A DNA stretch of 5,371 bases, from positions 1 to 5,371 of IMG/VR virus record IMGVR_UViG_2667527717_000007. One strand, 5' to 3'. The DNA comes from a virus (lineage: Duplodnaviria > Heunggongvirae > Uroviricota > Caudoviricetes). Under the pieces are notes generated by a model that saw nothing but the letters and a program-made list of their open reading frames with translations, was not told the DNA's origin and did not search any database. Below are positions 1-5,371 of this stretch, in pieces. Both the position numbers and the translations under genes were made by a program. Every line of letters begins with the position of its first letter. Positions within the stretch are counted from its first letter, which is position 1.

Positions 1-1
1 G

Positions 2-322
2 TTTACCGCCTGGCAGACCGCTGGCGCACCGTCTAAAGAAAGCTGGGCATTCACTGCGTTAGGTGTTCTCGGCAACGATGACANNCCTGAAGCATGGTTT
101 TTCAGTGATGTCAGCGGGTTATCTGAGAGTCATGCAGTACATTTACCAGAAAGTAATGGTTCAGACTTTCTCCCGCTTAGCGATGAAGAGATCAGACTGC
201 TAACTGTCTTCAGGAAATTTCCTTCTGTAGAGAGTAAAAACATGCTGTTAGCGTTTGAGATGAGACTTCAGGAGATAAAAGAATACTATTCCAAATACGC
301 TAATCCCAATAAAAACCGATAG
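2..322 (+). CDS. 3' portion of a gene entering from upstream (106 sense codons, stop TAG 320-322); hypothetical protein, possibly the C-terminal part of a prophage regulator
   Basis: Frame 2 is open from the window edge to TAG at 320-322; the other + frames hit stops within about 60 nt. Codon usage looks E. coli-like. The tail ...LSDEEIRLLTVFRKFPSVESKNMLLAFEMRLQEIKEYY resembles C-terminal tails I associate with some XRE-family regulators, from memory only. NN at 84-85 gives one unknown residue. Confidence 0.5.
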   Translation, partial: FTAWQTAGAPSKESWAFTALGVLGNDDXPEAWFFSDVSGLSESHAVHLPESNGSDFLPLSDEEIRLLTVFRKFPSVESKNMLLAFEMRLQEIKEYYSKYANPNKNR

Positions 323-348
323 TCTCCTTCTTTCCTCCCCCAACAATC

Positions 349-375
349 ACAAGCCTGCTTGAAATGCAGGCTTGT
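349..375 (+). other. Stem-loop with 10-bp stem (acaagcctgc / gcaggcttgt) and 7-nt loop, 27 nt after the stop of the upstream gene; no U-tract
   Basis: Direct base pairing of 349-358 with 366-375. Shares the GCCTGC...GCAGGC stem with hairpins at 1721-1734 and 2087-2104. No T-run follows, so it is not a canonical intrinsic terminator. Confidence 0.5.
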
Positions 376-386
376 TACACCTCGCA

Positions 387-401
387 TAATAAAACACTTA
401 A
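387..401 (+). repeat. Direct repeat copy 1: TAATAAAACACTTAA (exact 15-mer, second copy at 666-680; degenerate copy TAAACACTTGTATTTAT at 441-457)
   Basis: Exact 15-nt identity between 387-401 and 666-680, extending with a 2-nt gap into TTCAT. Both lie in an AT-rich context. Confidence 0.7.
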
Positions 402-558
402 ATTTCATACAATTAAAAATTTTTAGTGATTTTCTCACTTTAAACACTTGTATTTATCAAATCCATTTTGTAGATTGATTGTACAAATCCTCTAGCAACA
501 CATGCGCGACAGGTAAACGTTCCGCCGACGGGCGTAAAACAAAGATGAGGACGACAGA

Positions 559-747
559 GTGGACAAGACTGAACTGAAACACATTATCGCCCTGCTCCTG
601 GAAGATGCAAAACGTCTTCAGCAGGTTGAACCAAATGCAGGCACTGAGGCCCGCATATGGTTGGCTAATAAAACACTTAATTCATTCAGAGAGTTAAGCG
701 GTTTTGCAAGAGGGTCAGGTATCTCTACCGAACACCAACTTTCTTAG
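559..747 (+). CDS. Small hypothetical protein (62 aa), GTG start
   Basis: ORF from the six-frame track. GAGG at 547-550 sits 8 nt upstream of GTG 559. Codon usage is reasonable. It has no recognisable motif, contains a copy of the 15-bp repeat, and its last 23 nt overlap the convergent ORF 725..913. Coding status is uncertain. Confidence 0.35.
   Translation: MDKTELKHIIALLLEDAKRLQQVEPNAGTEARIWLANKTLNSFRELSGFARGSGISTEHQLS
666..680 (+). repeat. Direct repeat copy 2: TAATAAAACACTTAA, lying inside putative ORF 559..747
   Basis: Exact 15-mer match to 387-401. Confidence 0.7.
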
Positions 748-913
748 CTAGCGCCTCCATAATAATAGAATGTCGTTCGCTAAGAATGCCGATTGCCGCC
801 CCGCAAAGTGCACACTGAACGAAGTGAATAATGTGACTGCAATTTTTCACTGAGGAATTGGTTTTTAACTCAAAAGAAGTTGATGGGCATTTTGGACAGG
901 TTGTTACAGCCAT
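725..913 (-). CDS. Small C4 zinc-ribbon protein (62 aa), hypothetical
   Basis: ATG at 913-911 is preceded on the - strand by GGAGGG with a 6-nt spacer (+ strand cctcc at 922-926). The protein MAVTTCPKCPS...CSHIIHFVQCALCG carries a CxxC...CxxC spacing typical of a zinc ribbon. Its 3' end overlaps ORF 559..747 convergently. Confidence 0.5.
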   Translation of the reverse strand: MAVTTCPKCPSTSFELKTNSSVKNCSHIIHFVQCALCGAAIGILSERHSIIMEALAKKVGVR

Positions 914-946
914 ATTTTACCCTCCACGGGGTCGATGTTGGTGGAG

Positions 947-969
947 TTCCCGACGGACGAGGTCGGGAA
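947..969. other. Inverted repeat ttcccgac-N7-gtcgggaa (8-bp arms) in the 5' leader of the minus-strand ORF
   Basis: 947-954 is the reverse complement of 962-969. It lies about 34 nt upstream of the ATG at 913 in minus-strand sense. Confidence 0.4.
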
Positions 970-998
970 TGTGCGCCGGACACAGGTATAAATCCGGC

Positions 999-1013
999 AT
1001 ACGAAATTCGTAT
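999..1013. promoter_or_regulatory. Perfect 15-bp palindrome ATACGAA-A-TTCGTAT; candidate operator for a dimeric DNA-binding protein
   Basis: Arms 999-1005 and 1007-1013 are exact reverse complements. It sits in the divergent gap between the minus-strand ORF start (913) and the + strand operon (1391). Confidence 0.35.
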
Positions 1014-1047
1014 CACATGCAGGATATGTATTTAAACACGAGCACAT

Positions 1048-1122
1048 AACCGAAAACGCACTACGCAGAACCTTCCTTGTCGGGTCTGTCGTTAAATTTA
1101 CTGCGATAGTGCGTTTCCGGTT
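1048..1122. repeat. Long imperfect inverted repeat: arms 1048-1068 (aaccgaaaacgcactacgcag) and 1101-1122 (ctgcgatagtgcgtttccggtt), separated by 32 bp
   Basis: The reverse complement of arm 2 is aaccggaaacgcactatcgcag, which aligns to arm 1 with one mismatch and one 1-nt gap. It could be an operator pair or a structured RNA; the sequence alone cannot distinguish them. Confidence 0.55.
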
Positions 1123-1159
1123 ATGAGTGAAAATCATAACAGTGCTGTGTGTAGTCTTT

Positions 1160-1206
1160 GACGGTATCCGTTAACAAAGTTTTCCTGGCTGATACCGTCC
1201 TTTTTC
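1160..1206 (+). terminator. Terminator-like element: 9-bp stem gacggtatc / gataccgtc with a 22-nt loop, followed by CTTTTTC
   Basis: 1160-1168 pairs with 1191-1199 and a T5 run follows at 1201-1205. The loop is larger than in typical intrinsic terminators. It lies about 185 nt upstream of ORF 1391..1681, so it could be a leader attenuator. Confidence 0.35.
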
Positions 1207-1390
1207 AGAATGAATTTTATAGTGTGGTGAATGCGGCTCAGCGCACGTGACACAGTTAAAAACATGTCAGTCCTTCATCTGTTGATGGGTGGGAATGTTC
1301 GTCGGCAGTAATGGTTAGCTGTTTACTGTCACCGGGAGGCACCCGGCACCACACTCCAAAATTCATTGTGTTACCAGAATGGAGACAACT

Positions 1391-1681
1391 ATGCCAGTTA
1401 CACCTGAAATAAAACAAAACTCAGACTGGATGCGGCGCAACAAATCTGAACAAACCGCCCCTGCCTGTAAGCCTGGTATTATTCAGAAAATATTAAGTAC
1501 GCTGAACCAGAAAGGTGACCCCACCCTTATTCCTTGCGCTTATTGTGGCAAAGCCATCAACAAAAGTGAAATCGTGGAGCATGAACTTATTTATATAAAC
1601 GGAAGTCAGCTCGCAAGAAAAACGAATCTATATTGCAGTAAACGATGTGCCGAATATGACCAGATGGCACATGAATCTTAA
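1391..1681 (+). CDS. Small zinc-ribbon protein (96 aa), hypothetical early-left operon gene
   Basis: GGAG at 1381-1384 sits 6 nt before ATG 1391, which I prefer to the track start at 1379 (no SD). The protein has CAYCGK...x28...CSKRC, a CxxC-N28-CxxxC pattern. Stop TAA 1679-1681 is followed immediately by TAG. Its position matches the small genes that precede recE in Rac-like prophages. Confidence 0.65.
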   Translation: MPVTPEIKQNSDWMRRNKSEQTAPACKPGIIQKILSTLNQKGDPTLIPCAYCGKAINKSEIVEHELIYINGSQLARKTNLYCSKRCAEYDQMAHES

Positions 1682-1720
1682 TAGCTGAAAGTTTAACACT
1701 GCATTAACCCTGAAACTATG

Positions 1721-1734
1721 CCTGCAATGGCAGG
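1721..1734 (+). other. Short hairpin CCTGC-aatg-GCAGG in the gap between the two small genes
   Basis: 5-bp stem with a 4-nt loop. Shares the stem sequence of the hairpins at 349-375 and 2087-2104. Confidence 0.4.
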
Positions 1735-1764
1735 ATATCACTCACCCTGAAAAGAGAATATAAA

Positions 1765-2097
1765 ATGAGAAAGACACCGAGCGAATCAGTAATTAATGAA
1801 CTCAACAAACGAGCAAAGGAAATTCTTGAACTGTGTGAGAAAAACGATATTCCGGTTGTTTTTTGTTACTCATTCGAATTAAGCCGGAATGAAAATGGAT
1901 ATTTAAACAACAAATCCATTACAGCTTATATCAATAAAGAGAAAGGAGCATGGGATTCAACAATAGCCGCAGCCAGCATGATCCTGCGGATGAAAGAGGT
2001 TCCTGAGATAGCTATCCATGCAATGGCTGAAATGGCTGCGATTTGTGACATCACACGGACTGCATCCGGTACTTCAGATGAAAAAAGCCTGCACTAA
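1765..2097 (+). CDS. Hypothetical protein (110 aa) immediately upstream of recE-like gene
   Basis: ATG 1765 with a weak purine-rich SD (aaagaga, 1751-1757). Stop TAA 2095-2097. Co-directional and closely spaced with its neighbours. It occupies the position of racC in Rac, but I do not claim homology. Confidence 0.6.
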   Translation: MRKTPSESVINELNKRAKEILELCEKNDIPVVFCYSFELSRNENGYLNNKSITAYINKEKGAWDSTIAAASMILRMKEVPEIAIHAMAEMAAICDITRTASGTSDEKSLH

Positions 2098-2116
2098 GGC
2101 AGGCATTTTCCCGGTT
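2087..2116 (+). terminator. Possible intrinsic terminator or processing hairpin: GCCTGC-actaag-GCAGGC followed by ATTTTCCCGGTTTTT
   Basis: 6-bp GC-rich stem (2087-2092 / 2099-2104). The stop codon of the upstream ORF lies in the loop. The T-rich tract 2106-2119 is interrupted by CCCGG. recE starts 118 nt downstream, so any termination is probably partial. Confidence 0.35.
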
Positions 2117-2233
2117 TTTACATCCCGGCGATGCTGAGGTGGGCGACCAAACCCACCGACAGAGACATGACCAATGAGCACCAGAGGTGATCACCGATCG
2201 CCTCATTCTAAACAGAAGTGAGGTTAAAAAACA

Positions 2234-5200
2234 ATGAGTGATAAGAAAGAAGATTTCGCGCTGTACTGCCCTGTTAAAAATGAAGAGGCCAGGAAACGAC
2301 TTGGAATAAAAGCAGGCTTTTTCTGGGCAACTGCAAAAAAATTATCTGTGGCTGTTTCCCGCTGTATTGCTGCTATGGACGATAAGGGGTATGACGAGGA
2401 TGACTTTAAAAAACCTGTTCGCGTCAATTACCCCGTCGTTAACGACCTGCCTCCTGAAGGCGTGTTTGATACTGAATTCTGCAACCGTTACGAAAAAGGC
2501 GGTCAGGGTGGTATCACAATGGTACTTATCCCCGGCGCTGTTCCCGCCGATCCAATGCACGGCGAAGTCGGCAGGGATATTACTGGCAGCGGCAACGCAG
2601 ACGCAGACGCAGACGCAGGCACAGACGCAGATAATGCTACGGACAATACCGAAAGTACGCTCCTCCCCGCTTACGCTTATAACGTCAACGGCGAACTGAT
2701 GTCGGAAGTGGAAAAGGAAATGTCGCAGCCTGTTTCAGGACTAAGTCTGCCACTTCGTTTCCTGGCGCAATTTAATAACGACTGTCCACAACATCAGGTC
2801 ACACCAGAGCGTTTACGGGAGTTAAACCTTACAGAGCAGGATCCCGACAGTCGTACCGGAACTATTTTACTCGCCATCCAGAACAGAAAGGAACAGCTCG
2901 AAAAACTGGACACAAAAAACCTGCATCCTTTGGCGACGTACATTGAAAAAGTATTTCCCTGCGGAAAACGACCACAACTCAATGATGTCATTAATTTTAT
3001 CGATGCCGTACTTAATACAGACTATGTCGATCGCGGACTGCTCGTTAAGGAATGGTGCGAAGGTCGTCGAGCCGCGTGCGTAGAGCATGTAACAGCACCA
3101 GAAACCAGGCGTGATAATACTGTGTCAGCGCAGACGGAAACGAAGACTACTGTCACTGAACGTCCGCGTCGTAGCGAAAAAACAACGCACCGGACGATTA
3201 ATTATGAAATTGGCTGTGGCTTATATGACGGCGAGCTGGATCTTCATAACCTGAGGGAACCGCTGGATTTTGCGAAACGCATTATGGCGAAAGACCGGGA
3301 AGACTGGAAAGTATGGTCAGACACAATCAACTGCATCCCTGGCATCCTGAATTATGACCGCCAGACCATTATCGAGATGGTACGAAAAGCCCCCACCCCG
3401 ACTTATCACAGTGCTGCACTGCGCCGCGAGTGGTGTGATTCTTATCTGCGAGCCTGGGGACGGCTCGATCCCGACTGGAGCCAGAGCGCCGCTGTCAAAA
3501 CAGCAGAGTCACATGAAGATGTCTGTGCTGATATCAGGAAGGCCGGAAAGCGCCTGCGTGAAATTGAATCAGGAGTTGGGATCAATGAAGAAAAACAGAC
3601 GACACAGGGAGAACTGGCAGATGAACCGTCAGCGCCTGAATCAGTGGAACCGGCTTCAGCTGAACATCAGCAGAATACGCAGCCGCTGGATGCTGAGGCA
3701 TCTGTAAACACCACTAAAACGGAATTCGATGTATTTGCTCTAATGCAGAACTCATCTGTTTATGGCAGCAAAAACACACAGGAGACGACCAGCAATGTGC
3801 AGGTTCAGGACGCTGAAAAGGATGAAAAACAGGCTGGTACTGAAGTTCAGTCAGGCGAAAGCAGTCTGGGAACTGGTGAAGAGTCAGATACCAGACAGCA
3901 AGCCGATGTAAACCAGAATACGGATTCTGTCGCCCAAAATAGCGATTCTGTAAACCAAACTGAACCAGTTTTGGCACAAACCGAGCCAGAAGTGCAATCT
4001 GACGAACCGGCTGTTGTTTACCCCGCTTACTTCGAACCAGGCCGCTATGAGGGTCTGCCGAACGAGGTTTATCACGCAGCCAACGGTATCAGCTCGACAA
4101 TGGTAAAAGATGCGCGGGTGAGCCTGATGTACTTCAATGCGCGCCACGTAGAGAAAACCATTATCAAAGAACGCTCTCCTGTACTGGATATCGGTAACCT
4201 GGTGCATGCACTGGCGTTGCAGCCAGATCAACTCGATGAAGAATTCAGCATTGAACCCGTAATTCCGGAAGGTGCATTTACCACCACGGCAACGATCCGC
4301 GCGTTTATTGATGAGCACAACGCCAGCCTGACAGCGATGCTGTCAGCCGACGACATCAAAGCACTGTTAGAAGAGTACAACGCCACCCTTCCTGCTCAGG
4401 TTCAGTTAGGTGGTTCCGTGGAGGAAACTGGCCAGAGCTATATGTCGCTGCCAGAAGAGTTCCAGCGTCTCGAAGCGGACAAGAAGCAGACCGCAGCGGC
4501 AATGAAAGCCTGCATCAAGGAATACAACACCACACTGCCTGCACAAGTGAAAATCAGCGGTAGCCGTGATGCGTTACTCGAGCAGTTAGCAATCATCAAT
4601 CCTGACCTGGTGGCGCAGGAAGCGCAGAAGCCCGCGCAGTTGAAAGTGTCCGGCACCAAAGCGGATCTGATTCAGGCCGTGAAGTCTGTTAATCCTGATG
4701 CCATCTTCGCCGACGAACTGCTGGATGCGTGGCGCGAAAATACGCAAGGGAAAGTGCTGGTCACCCGCCAGCAACTGAGCACTGCACTGAGCATTCAGAA
4801 AGCCCTGCTCGAGCACCCTACAGCGGGCAAGCTACTGACACACCCGAGCCGCGCCGTTGAGGTGAGCTACTTCGGTTTTGACGACGAAACCGGTCTGGAA
4901 GTCCGCGTTCGTCCCGACCTTGAGATCGATCTTGACGGGGTGCGCATCGGCGCCGACCTGAAAACCATCAGCATGTGGAACATTAAACAGGAAGGTCTGC
5001 GCGCCAAACTGCACCGCGAAATCATCGACCGTGACTACCACCTGAGTGCTGCCATGTATTGCGAGACCGCAGCGCTTGACCAGTTCTTCTGGATTTTCGT
5101 CAACAAAGACGAGAACTACCACTGGATCGCCATCATCGAGGCATCCGCCGAACTTCTGGAACTGGGCATGCTGGAGTACCGCAAGGCAATGCGCGCCATC

Positions 5201-5296
5201 GCTACCGGCTTTGACACTGGCGAGTGGCCAGCGCCGATCACCTCCGGTAACTCCGATGAAATAGCCGACTACACCGACGAACTGAACGATTTCGAC
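2234..5296 (+). CDS. recE: Exodeoxyribonuclease VIII (RecE family; PD-(D/E)XK / DUF3799-type nuclease domain at C-terminus); 3' end truncated by an artefactual junction
   Basis: Single long ORF with GAGG at 2220-2223 and ATG 2234. Stretches I recognise from E. coli Rac RecE: FPVVNDLP-like NYPVVNDLPPEG, LPLRFLAQ, DYVDRGLLVKEW, NTQPLDAEASVN. The C-terminal domain carries nuclease motifs: YHAANGISSTMVKD, LDIGNLVHALAL, RVRPDLEID, GADLKT (D-x-K), DYHLSAAMY. An acidic, Q/T-rich low-complexity linker spans roughly aa 470-590. No stop codon is reached before the sequence turns into rRNA at 5297. Confidence 0.85.
2597..2630 (+). repeat. In-frame imperfect hexanucleotide tandem repeat (GCAGAC)n, about 5.7 units, encoding ADADADAGTDAD within recE
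   Basis: gcagac gcagac gcagac gcaggc acagac gcag, read directly. The unit length of 6 keeps the reading frame under slippage. Confidence 0.8.
4295..4710 (+). repeat. Degenerate internal repeats inside the recE nuclease-domain region (three copies of an [IM][RK]A-x-[IL]-x-E-[HY]-N-x-[ST]-L motif, and duplicated LPAQV-x-[IL]-SGS / KVSGTKADLIQAV modules)
   Basis: DNA-level similarity between 4373-4418 and 4520-4564 (about 67% identity, 147-bp period). Protein motifs: IRAFIDEHNASL, IKALLEEYNATL, MKACIKEYNTTL, and ISGSRDALLEQLAIINPD vs VSGTKADLIQAVKSVNPD. Confidence 0.5.
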
Positions 5297-5371
5297 NCNT
5301 GCCATCNGANGNGCCCAGATGGGATTAGCTAGTAGGTGGGGTAACGGCTCACCTAGGCGACGATCCCTAGC
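5297..5371 (+). rRNA. Internal fragment of 16S rRNA gene (Enterobacteriaceae-type, roughly E. coli positions 215-290); most likely a chimeric or assembly artefact, not an intact rRNA gene
   Basis: tgccatcNgaNgNgcccagatgggattagctagtaggtggggtaacggctcacctaggcgacgatccctagc matches the conserved 16S segment TGCCATCGGATGTGCCCAGATGGGATTAGCTAGTAGGTGGGGTAACGGCTCACCTAGGCGACGATCCCTAGC as I recall it. It begins abruptly inside the recE reading frame, with N calls clustered at 5297-5312. Confidence 0.8.

Follow-up and report, generated by a model that had tools for sequence, protein, structure and literature searches.

A probable divergent dicF-type RNA module preceding the early-left gene block in a Rac/Qin-like lambdoid prophage

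Relation to DicF, KilS and STnc100

In prophage Qin, the polycistronic RNA gives rise to the small RNA DicF, as a 190-nt species through RNase III and a 53-nt species through RNase E, and no internal promoter was found (10.1101/2023.04.14.536235). KilS, encoded in the sieB-kilR spacer (kilR 5' UTR) of the Rac prophage in Escherichia coli K-12, has been verified by Northern analysis; its recorded start is at 1,418,502, and its RNase E site lies at 1,418,471 (Bar et al. 2021, PMC8175672). STnc100, EcOnc27 and PasD are reported Hfq-bound small RNAs, with STnc100/PasD covered by a recent preprint (Zhu, Shabalina and Storz 2026). Canonical STnc100 copies are late-region elements, found between Q and holin or 3' of stx2B, and each has its own terminator. 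The literature we found treats DicF, KilS and STnc100/PasD as unrelated, and we found in it no account linking the KilS/DicF unit to the kilR/dicB leader and STnc100.

Here, we analysed positions 914–1390 of a 5,371-nt stretch (hereafter, the window; positions 1–5,371 of the Caudoviricetes record IMGVR_UViG_2667527717_000007). This palindrome-rich gap is a divergent copy of a common prophage RNA module and not a repressor-operator set. It probably represents a non-coding dicF-type module, transcribed on the + strand, from a lambdoid prophage of the Rac/Qin kind. It comprises, all 5' of the early-left genes, a hairpin for processing, a small RNA of the DicF/KilS type with a terminator, and a structured STnc100-related leader. 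Our analyses demonstrate homology, architecture and helix covariation for 914–1390. In alignments, the ydfC-dicF-dicB spacer of Qin was homologous to the region over its entire length, with 914–1040 aligning to the ydfC-dicF interval, and the sieB-kilR spacer of Rac was homologous from ~1040 on, whilst in Rac-like phages the DNA upstream of kilR matched the window from 1083 at 70–74% (blastn). Related sequence was carried by 4327 of 5426 complete E. coli genomes in word-11 blastn searches; megablast of 700–1700 against complete E. coli genomes gave no match.

Covariance searches returned two Rfam families end to end on the + strand, DicF at 1146–1200 (RF00039; 24.1 bits, E 0.053) and STnc100 at 1199–1403 (RF02076; 39.5 bits, E 3.7e-6, full model 1–206 aligned), and the same pair of matches occurs in K-12 Rac and Qin. 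Since both scores fall under the curated gathering thresholds (48 and 47 bits, respectively), the region constitutes a divergent new member of known families. For comparison, DicF scored 39.1 bits in the K-12 Rac copy and 76.7 bits in Qin DicF, and the three Fels-1 STnc100 copies scored 138, 83 and 59. A covariance model of the leader built without the window (R1) matched the window leader at 114.3 bits (E 4e-30) and recovered all three Fels-1 STnc100 copies (39.9, 34.5 and 20.4 bits).

The window shares with KilS a slot between a - strand accessory gene and the leader plus first gene of the kil/recE block, together with a 13-nt seed, an upstream long hairpin containing TAAATT, the terminator layout and 65% identity over ~100 nt. 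Unlike in KilS, the terminator stem sequence differs by compensating changes, the loop is different, the downstream gene encodes a 96-aa YdaE-family protein rather than KilR and the upstream gene encodes a zinc-ribbon protein rather than SieB. The Qin dicBF locus is colinear over the 477-bp spacer, with small hairpins, a long hairpin, a small RNA with terminator and a ~190-nt structured spacer, but has ~110 extra nucleotides between the long hairpin and dicF. With STnc100/PasD, the window leader shares the closing helix, the GUGAAU junction and the invariant hairpin UCACCGGGAGGCACCCGGCAC; in contrast to canonical copies, the window element has no terminator and forms the 5' leader of an early gene, and the sequence of its first internal hairpin differs. 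Connecting the KilS/DicF unit, the kilR/dicB leader and STnc100 is a modest, testable addition to the existing literature.

Inverted repeats and structured elements

All four dyads reported in a first-pass annotation were recovered by sequence inspection and inverted-repeat search: the perfect 15-bp palindrome ATACGAAATTCGTAT (999–1013), an 8-bp repeat (947–954/962–969), a 9-bp repeat (1160–1168/1191–1199) followed by TTTTT at 1201–1205, and a long imperfect repeat. The arms of the last had been placed slightly off, at 1048–1068/1101–1122, and are better given as 1045–1063/1107–1125 (19 nt, 95%), which RNAfold lengthens to ~1045–1068/1101–1125. Two further elements had been overlooked, a long-range repeat at 1206–1229/1347–1370 (24 nt, 88%) and a 5-bp hairpin at 1332–1346. 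The density of dyads exceeds chance: counting perfect inverted repeats of at least 8 bp with loops of up to 60, the region holds three, compared with 0.31 ± 0.53 in 300 shuffles, none of which reached three, and eight equal-size coding stretches held 0–1 each.

Nearly all of these dyads are RNA structures of the + strand and not operators. Folding z-scores were -4.77 (+ strand) and -5.71 (- strand), with no equally stable fold among 100 shuffles. As both strands are well folded, energy alone fails to separate them, and the strand was taken from G-U counts and the U-run. Cells with G-U outnumbered those with A-C by 25 to 5 in the long hairpin and by 23 to 13 in the leader, and a U-run lies 3' of a hairpin on the + strand only. 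The long hairpin, the leader and the stem of the terminator are each supported by compensatory base changes among relatives, whilst register-slid controls were only 25–45% paired. Compensatory changes combined with many G-U pairs indicate RNA helices instead of protein-binding palindromes. When the dyads were compared across related prophages, the helices proved to be kept through compensatory change and the 15-bp palindrome to be lineage-specific.

Three small + strand hairpins precede the long hairpin. The stem of H1 (923–947; CTCCAC...GTGGAG) is identical in sequence to that of the hairpin 3' of ydfC in Qin; on the opposite strand, H1 overlaps the zinc-ribbon gene's ribosome-binding region. 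H2 (947–969; TTCCCGAC-GGACGAG-GTCGGGAA) contains the 8-bp dyad; its Qin counterpart in the alignment is the hairpin CTCCAC-GGGTGAG-GTGGAG, and the two differ in both arms of the stem. H3 (975–998; CCGGA...TCCGG) lies within the block GTGCGCCGGACAC..ATCCGG common to Qin-type loci. The adjoining 15-bp palindrome, for which no strand is assigned, is single-copy, and near the corresponding alignment position Qin has a different, shorter palindrome, AACTGACAGTT. No conserved RNA feature accounts for the palindrome of the window.

The long hairpin (1045–1125, + strand) has ~24 paired positions in the window, 18 of which are conserved across Qin-, Rac- and window-type loci; over these 18 pairs, 96.9% of cells were paired and six pairs showed double changes, with none of 500 shuffles scoring as high. 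By analogy with Qin, it is likely an RNase III processing site for read-through transcripts, as the 190-nt RNase III-dependent DicF species starts, judged by length, in the 3' arm of the homologous hairpin, an assignment that depends on a gel estimate accurate to ~10 nt. Its nearly invariant loop motif TGTCGTTAAATTT contains a candidate -10 on the + strand, TAAATT (1093–1098), with a predicted start at G1105/A1106. The recorded KilS start in K-12 Rac (MG1655 1,418,502, position 2525 of locus L003) lies 7 nt after TAAATT, which is there preceded by TG (TGtTAAATT). Homology with this mapped start suggests that the region probably holds a weak promoter; since the window has CG in place of the Rac extended -10 TG and has no -35, the internal promoter may be absent from this copy. 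The earlier statement that no convincing -35/-10 hexamers could be placed holds in consensus promoter scans of the region, which gave none above shuffle expectation.

Downstream of this hairpin, a KilS-like small RNA is predicted on the + strand in a long form of ~100 nt (1105–1205; 65% identity to K-12 KilS) and a putative DicF-like short form (~1143–1205) with a single-stranded seed, GCUGUGUGUAGUC, at 1144–1156. The 13-nt seed is identical to the Rac/KilS seed (GCTGTGTGTAGTC within the 1105–1205 alignment), and the published KilS probes (PMC8175672) match the seed and hairpin. Homology likewise covers the region of the K-12 RNase E site. In its RNAfold shape (free seed, 9+4-bp hairpin of -15.4 kcal/mol, UUUUU), the element falls in the ~55–60 nt class of DicF, and twelve sequence types, folded one by one with RNAfold, all gave a free seed, hairpin and U-run. 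Its location, in the repressor-controlled early-left operon upstream of a ~190-nt structured spacer and a small gene, is colinear with that in Qin and Rac. The DicF seed, UUUCUGGUGAC, differs from that of the window, so their targets probably differ. RNAduplex against E. coli ftsZ (-80 to +40) did not separate even genuine DicF from shuffles, and the loop sequence of the window differs from that of DicF. Pairing between the seed and the downstream ORF start (-22.4 kcal/mol, p ~0.002 in the window; p 0.1–0.3 in Rac and Qin) was rejected as a family feature because it was significant in the window only.

The putative intrinsic terminator (1160–1205, + strand; -15.4 kcal/mol) combines the 9-bp stem 1160–1168/1191–1199 with an inner 4-bp stem, followed by C and UUUUU (1201–1205), a short run of five U and then C. 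Its stem covaries, with GACGG/CCGTC in the window and GGCGG/CCGCC or GGTGG/CCACC in relatives. A terminator scan with a loop limit of 8 nt missed 1160–1205, and the terminator was accepted from folding and homology.

The remaining interval forms an STnc100-like, multi-helix structured leader of ~150 nt (1206–1370, + strand), identified by Rfam STnc100, model R1 and covariation. Its closing helix, supported by covariation, pairs 1221–1229 with 1347–1355 and extends to 1206–1229/1347–1370; within it are the invariant hairpin in GGUGAAUGCGGCUNAGCGCACG (1232–1235/1242–1245), the inner helices 1248–1251/1301–1304 and 1305–1308/1326–1329, and a hairpin with loop AGGCA (1332–1336/1342–1346), all on the + strand. 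Over 26 pairs, 94.1% of cells were paired, and 11 pairs (49 cells) showed double changes, with none of 500 shuffles as high; the covariation score was 0.331 compared with 0.140 in shuffles. The closing helix and the CACCNGGAGGCACCNGGCAC hairpin, as in STnc100, are kept by covariation. No hairpin plus U-run that could serve as the leader core's own 3' terminator was found from 1370 to the ribosome-binding site (1381), and the predicted fold leaves the ribosome-binding site unsequestered. On the + strand, Shine-Dalgarno GGAGA (1381–1385) and ATG 1391, the true initiation codon (1381–1393 together), start the 96-aa YdaE-family ORF (1391–1681). This ATG aligns onto the kilR start, kilR (Rac) and dicB (Qin) occupying the corresponding position, and in relatives gene callers give 96 aa with PF27493 YdaE; a PHROG match was also obtained.

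Operator, antitermination, small-RNA and coding explanations

The density of dyads had been taken to signal operator sites or an antitermination leader. What stands of this expectation is a non-coding regulatory stretch that heads the early-left (kil/recE) block and includes a terminator-like hairpin, but the mechanism does not. Nor is the region the counterpart of lambda OL/pL/nutL, as immunity-specific control DNA ends near 500, upstream of 914–1390. This boundary follows from a relative with a different repressor family (L030), which is 98.9% identical from window ~501 on and unalignable before that at the same offset, and which keeps the whole region including the 15-bp palindrome. The expected pL/OL site is instead the AT-rich spacer after the repressor gene (323–558, + strand), immunity-specific up to ~500, with the repressor C-terminus reading to 319. 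Control at the DNA level, with the dyads serving as operators for the prophage repressor or another regulator and flanking divergent zinc-ribbon and early-operon promoters, is in our assessment very unlikely. The palindrome at 999–1013 is shaped like a dimer-binding site and unexpected by chance, the zinc-ribbon gene (725–913, - strand) needs a promoter in or beyond 914–1170, for which a weak - strand candidate with an extended -10 (TGTTATGAT) exists at ~1130–1162, and the K-12 KilS start implies a promoter within the long hairpin. However, each 6.2-kb immunity region has a single copy of the palindrome half-sites, unchanged with either repressor family, whereas a lambda-type OL would present several related, immunity-specific half-sites; immunity-specific DNA stops near 500; variation in the remaining dyads consists of compensatory changes and G-U pairs, which leave a helix intact but would destroy a sequence-specific protein site; and consensus promoter scans stayed at shuffle expectation. 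The 15-bp palindrome itself is not an immunity operator, and is either a small RNA hairpin or some other protein site. The region resembles lambda OL/pL/nutL and HK022 putL in its general placement close to the beginning of the leftward early operon and in a 5-bp stem with pentaloop, and differs from lambda in lying 400–800 bp downstream of immunity-specific DNA without repeated operators, a conserved boxA or an N gene. A quite unlikely reading, that the STnc100-like core or the 1332–1346 hairpin acts as a nut- or put-like RNA for processive antitermination of the long early-left operon, would fit the position of the core at the head of long operons, both early-left (Rac, Qin and the window) and late (Q-holin in Fels-1, after tRNA genes in L013). 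It would also fit the stem and loop sizes of the hairpin, which are those of lambda boxB, and the lack of a recognizable N-like gene, as in put-using HK022; the 62-aa first ORF had no Pfam match and matched only PHROG families of unassigned function. Against it, the loop AGGCA is not GNRA-like, and the boxA-like GCTGTTTAC varies, reading T1322G in close relatives and AACTGGTTA in Rac and Qin. Moreover, in loci of the Rac, Qin and window types the DicF-type terminator precedes the core, and in 25 loci and in canonical STnc100 the core is directly followed by a terminator, giving a terminated small RNA, so the core alone does not block termination. HK022 put is a two-stem RNA of ~70 nt, whereas the window leader is a multi-helix junction closed by a long-range helix, with no similarity between them; R1 gave no match at E up to 1 in HK022 24000–36000, which runs from an IS903 copy to gene O and is expected to hold the unannotated immunity region with putL and putR. 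With this null result and the unconserved boxA-like motif, the put and nut readings were set aside.

Reciprocal matches between the covariance models of the core and STnc100, together with the reported Hfq binding of STnc100, EcOnc27 and PasD, are what could make the core an STnc100/PasD-type small RNA that depends on Hfq and acts in trans, processed out of the read-through transcript, rather than a cis leader. We regard this as unlikely, as in the window, Rac and Qin alike the core lacks its own terminator and leads directly into the ribosome-binding site, the usual Hfq anchor being a 3' hairpin with a U-run, and the literature found reports no such RNA from kilR or dicB leaders. That the region is instead degenerate coding sequence, a remnant of a kil, sieB or ydfC-type gene in which the repeats are incidental, is extremely improbable, even though gene callers give a 43-aa ORF on the - strand (window 1134–1265) in relatives and one E. 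coli annotation names a related element 'frameshifted hypothetical protein'. As the first-pass annotation had it, there is no credible ORF, the region containing only unconserved ORFs of 30–77 aa. No ORF is kept between types and no frame is shared by the window, Rac and Qin types in alignments; indel lengths among relatives are not multiples of three, and substitutions cluster as compensatory stem pairs. Conservation of the non-coding spacer is just as good in Qin and Rac, whose flanking genes are intact.

Proposed expression of the module and its significance

For the preferred dicF-type module, the promoter, processing and termination assignments are all carried over from the K-12 homologues, and we infer that the same processing steps, as well as a role for the leader, apply in the present prophage. 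Transcripts would start at an early-left promoter under repressor control (upstream, ~380–550) and cross the 62-aa ORF, the antisense zinc-ribbon gene and then the hairpin array. RNase III would cleave the long hairpin (1045–1125), and the weak loop promoter (TAAATT, 1093–1098) may also initiate at ~1105, either route giving the KilS-like RNA of ~100 nt. RNase E may then trim this RNA to a DicF-like form of ~60 nt with a free 5' seed and terminator hairpin. The hairpin 1160–1199 and its U-run would terminate the small RNA, and the same terminator would attenuate transcription into the YdaE-like, RacC-like and RecE genes. Read-through RNA would bear the 150-nt STnc100-like leader, ending ~10 nt before the ribosome-binding site, and we propose, as a guess, that this leader acts in cis to affect either translation or message stability of the first gene.

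A broader and more tentative possibility, which we think doubtful, is that the seed-plus-terminator unit and the STnc100/PasD core are two portable modules of one widespread lambdoid RNA system, in which the core has a conserved cis function heading long phage operons and the known small RNAs are by-products or secondary uses. In early-left operons either unit may precede the other, and in late operons the core is found by itself or as tandem copies; one example of a core role would be a docking platform for a host or phage factor controlling RNA stability, translation or elongation.

For annotation, the frequent 'empty' 0.5-kb gap in Rac/Qin-like prophages corresponds to an RNA module, into which gene callers sometimes put spurious small ORFs and whose divergent copies are overlooked by present Rfam thresholds. 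The 17 seed variants seen among 43 seed-plus-downstream-start combinations represent variable seeds on a constant scaffold, suggesting that prophages diversify their small-RNA targets. Ultimately, because the module sits directly 5' of toxic or host-acting genes (kil, dicB, recE), its terminator and leader likely set how tightly these genes are silenced in lysogens.

Homology and covariation of the non-coding gap

On the plus strand of the window, an Rfam scan returned two sub-threshold matches that adjoin end to end, one to DicF (1146-1200, 24.1 bits, E 0.053) and one, full-length, to STnc100 (1199-1403, 39.5 bits, E 3.7e-6). In Rac-like phages, the DNA directly preceding kilR matched 1083-1393 at 70-74% by blastn; of 5426 complete E. 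coli genomes, 4327 contained related sequence, in a median of two places each. Both places in K-12 are prophage spacers (sieB-kilR in Rac and ydfC-dicF-dicB in Qin), each with paired DicF and STnc100 Rfam matches as in the window. The 914-1040 part was alignable with Qin too, the two sharing the block GTGCGCCGGACAC...ATCCGG, and the Qin counterpart of the hairpin at 947-969 is CTCCAC-GGGTGAG-GTGGAG, with both stem sides changed. The whole 477-bp gap is therefore a single homologous non-coding unit, and 914-1390 is a divergent member of the KilS/DicF and STnc100 prophage RNA families, lying under both Rfam thresholds.

The four dyads reported by the first-pass annotation were all present, whilst the coordinates of one needed correcting. 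Their density was above chance: three perfect inverted repeats of 8 bp or more were counted, whereas shuffles gave 0.31 +/- 0.53 and same-sized coding stretches 0-1. The RNA folding z-score of the region was -4.77, and two further dyads were detected, a long-range repeat (1206-1229/1347-1370) and a hairpin (1332-1346).

Loci carrying the invariant 22-mer GGTGAATGCGGCTNAGCGCACG were compared across related prophages, 22 of them in species-representative genomes and 120 in viral contigs. The comparison, proposed in the first-pass annotation, revealed that the long hairpin, terminator stem and leader are kept with compensatory changes. Within the leader (1206-1370), five helices were predicted from 17 diverse sequences (RNAalifold), with 94.1% of cells paired and 11 of 26 pairs (49 cells) changed on both sides; none of 500 shuffles reached these values, and a slid-register control brought pairing down to 29-45%. 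The stem of hairpin 1332-1346, for example, reads CCGGG/CCCGG in eight sequences and CCUGG/CCAGG in eight. Across 20 sequences, the long hairpin (1045-1125) comprised 18 conserved pairs, with 96.9% of cells paired and six doubly changed pairs (matched by 0/500 shuffles). The terminator stem (1160-1199) also covaries, being GACGG/CCGTC in the window, GGCGG/CCGCC in most relatives and GGTGG/CCACC in one. This covariation, the excess of G-U over A-C cells (25 vs 5 in the long hairpin, 23 vs 13 in the leader) and a U-run 3' of the terminator hairpin on the plus strand only indicate a plus-strand RNA. Judged from these sequence comparisons, nearly all of the dyads are RNA helices.

Putative DicF/KilS-like small RNA and STnc100-like leader

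In Qin, DicF is excised from the polycistronic dicBF RNA by RNase III to a 190-nt form and by RNase E to a 53-nt form, and an internal dicF promoter was not found (10.1101/2023.04.14.536235). Measured from the 3' end of DicF, this gel-estimated length of 190 nt would put the cut within the 3' arm of the long hairpin's Qin copy. The Rac counterpart, KilS, is a Northern-verified, Hfq-associated small RNA (MG1655 1,418,502 to 1,418,405) with an RNase E site mapped to 1,418,471 and a start site recorded for its 5' end (Bar et al., PMC8175672). On the K-12 Rac locus it occupies 2525-2622 (L003), from the start of the long-hairpin 3' arm to the U-run, and the KilS probes match the seed and DicF-like hairpin. 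The KilS start is 7 nt downstream of TAAATT; with the TG in front of it, this hexamer forms an extended -10 within the loop motif TGTCGTTAAATTT, nearly invariant across all types. The window carries TAAATT at 1093-1098, with CG in place of TG and no -35 found; by analogy, a start at about 1105 is predicted from this candidate -10. The 1105-1205 stretch is 65% identical to KilS, with an identical seed, GCUGUGUGUAGUC.

The seed region (1139-1156) is predicted to pair with codons 10-16 of the YdaE-like ORF (1421-1438) over 15 bp (-22.4 kcal/mol, p about 0.002 vs shuffles), and similar pairings in Rac and Qin were non-significant. This ORF segment, TGGATGCGGCGCA, resembles the invariant TGAATGCGGCTCA of the leader. 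A candidate extended -10 promoter (GTCAAA, 18 nt, TGTTATGAT) also lies in the seed region on the minus strand (1130-1162), directed towards the zinc-ribbon gene; were this promoter genuine, its transcript would have a 5' UTR of about 210 nt lying antisense to the long hairpin. Elsewhere, a 43-aa ORF (L028-L030, 2649-2780) and a 'frameshifted hypothetical protein' (L154, 3554-3873) are annotated over the RNA module, and both calls are probably spurious.

A covariance model of the leader (R1), trained on 14 leader sequences with the window and Fels-1 left out, matched the window leader (114.3 bits, E 4e-30) and all three STnc100 copies of Fels-1 (39.9, 34.5 and 20.4 bits), demonstrating that leader and STnc100 are homologous. 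These canonical copies lie between the Q and holin genes (L153 12432-14187), and the last, separated by 46 nt from the start of the holin gene, mirrors the core before kilR in Rac, dicB in Qin and the first gene of the window. Published positions of STnc100 and the related PasD are near Q and downstream of stx2B. Tandem STnc100-type cores, three in Fels-1 and two in another locus (L013 6530-7348), were located between Q or tRNA genes and lysis genes. Module order varies among 120 distinct loci: 47 of Qin type and 19 of Rac type have the small RNA ahead of the core, 25 have the core ahead of a DicF-like terminator with a Rac seed, and a few have the core by itself. The core-first form is likewise found in an early-left operon and scores 43-45 bits for STnc100. 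In one such locus (L154 3490-3530), the long hairpin is reduced to its 5' arm (AAAAGCAGGCACATAAC), fused directly to the core, which suggests that this arrangement was derived from the Rac/Qin order via rearrangement.

Prophage setting and alternative readings

The window comes from a Rac-like lambdoid prophage and represents its immunity-left part. It opens with the C-terminal end of a protein (2-319, frame 2, plus strand) at the position where near-identical contigs encode a 144-aa HTH_3 repressor, followed there by divergent YdaS/YdaT-type genes; two Ns lie within this fragment (84-85). An AT-rich spacer with a hairpin at 349-373 follows (323-558), then a 62-aa ORF (559-747, plus; PHROG families of unknown function) and, convergent with it across a 23-nt overlap, a 62-aa zinc-ribbon ORF (725-913, minus) with weak matches only, to Lar_restr_allev and CGGC. 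The place of the latter is taken by sieB in Rac and by an ECs1072-family gene in another prophage; early-left transcripts must therefore cross this ORF antisense. Beyond the palindrome-rich gap (914-1390) are a 96-aa YdaE-family ORF with its real start at ATG 1391, a 110-aa ORF in the racC position (1765-2097; PHROG match, function unknown) and exonuclease VIII/RecE (2234 onward), giving the Rac order of racR, ydaG, ydaF, sieB (opposite strand), kilR, ydaE, racC and recE. Within recE, a GCAGAC/GCAGGC hexamer run (2590-2635) encodes a D/A-rich, simple-repeat, low-complexity linker, DADADAGTDAD. The window end (5297-5371), where scattered Ns precede a 51-nt bacterial 16S rRNA fragment (Rfam SSU, 35.5 bits, model positions 237-287), looks chimeric or mis-assembled, truncating recE; RecE comprises 1034-1038 aa in relatives.

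The first-pass annotation had interpreted 914-1390 as operators or an antitermination leader, the counterpart of lambda OL/pL/nutL, and this interpretation was partly supported. A relative with a different repressor (L030; Phage_CI_repr, vs HTH_3 in the window type) is 98.9% identical from about 501 onward and unalignable at the same offset upstream, placing the immunity-specific control DNA upstream of about 500 and thereby arguing against the lambda counterpart. The real pL/OL counterpart is likely the 323-558 spacer, in which a promoter scan found no strong consensus promoter (best matches 8-9/12). The 15-bp palindrome, which occurs once in the entire 6.2-kb immunity region and does not differ between the two immunity types, also fits poorly with OL. 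Close to its aligned position, Qin has a shorter, different palindrome, AACTGACAGTT, which hints at a conserved small hairpin, although the 15-bp palindrome may also be a lineage-specific protein site. A boxA-like GCTGTTTAC varies among relatives rather than being conserved, and R1 found no match in HK022 24000-36000 (IS903 copy to gene O, the expected putL/putR immunity region, unannotated). Working terminators directly 3' of the core in many loci argue against its acting as an autonomous antiterminator.

Proposed mechanism

The sequence comparisons establish the homology, architecture and covariation of the 914-1390 module, a predicted small RNA followed by a structured leader. Early-left transcripts would run into this hairpin array, where the long hairpin would be cut by RNase III, with a transcription start within its loop as an additional possibility. 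The resulting KilS-like RNA would terminate at 1160-1199 and might then be shortened to about 60 nt, the DicF-like form. Processing, start site and Hfq binding have been shown for the K-12 homologues and would extend to the window module by analogy. The same terminator would restrict transcription into the YdaE-like, RacC-like and RecE genes, whilst read-through RNA would carry the STnc100-like leader, suggested to affect stability or translation in cis. KilS/DicF and STnc100 are linked in this module, and its leader is very widespread.
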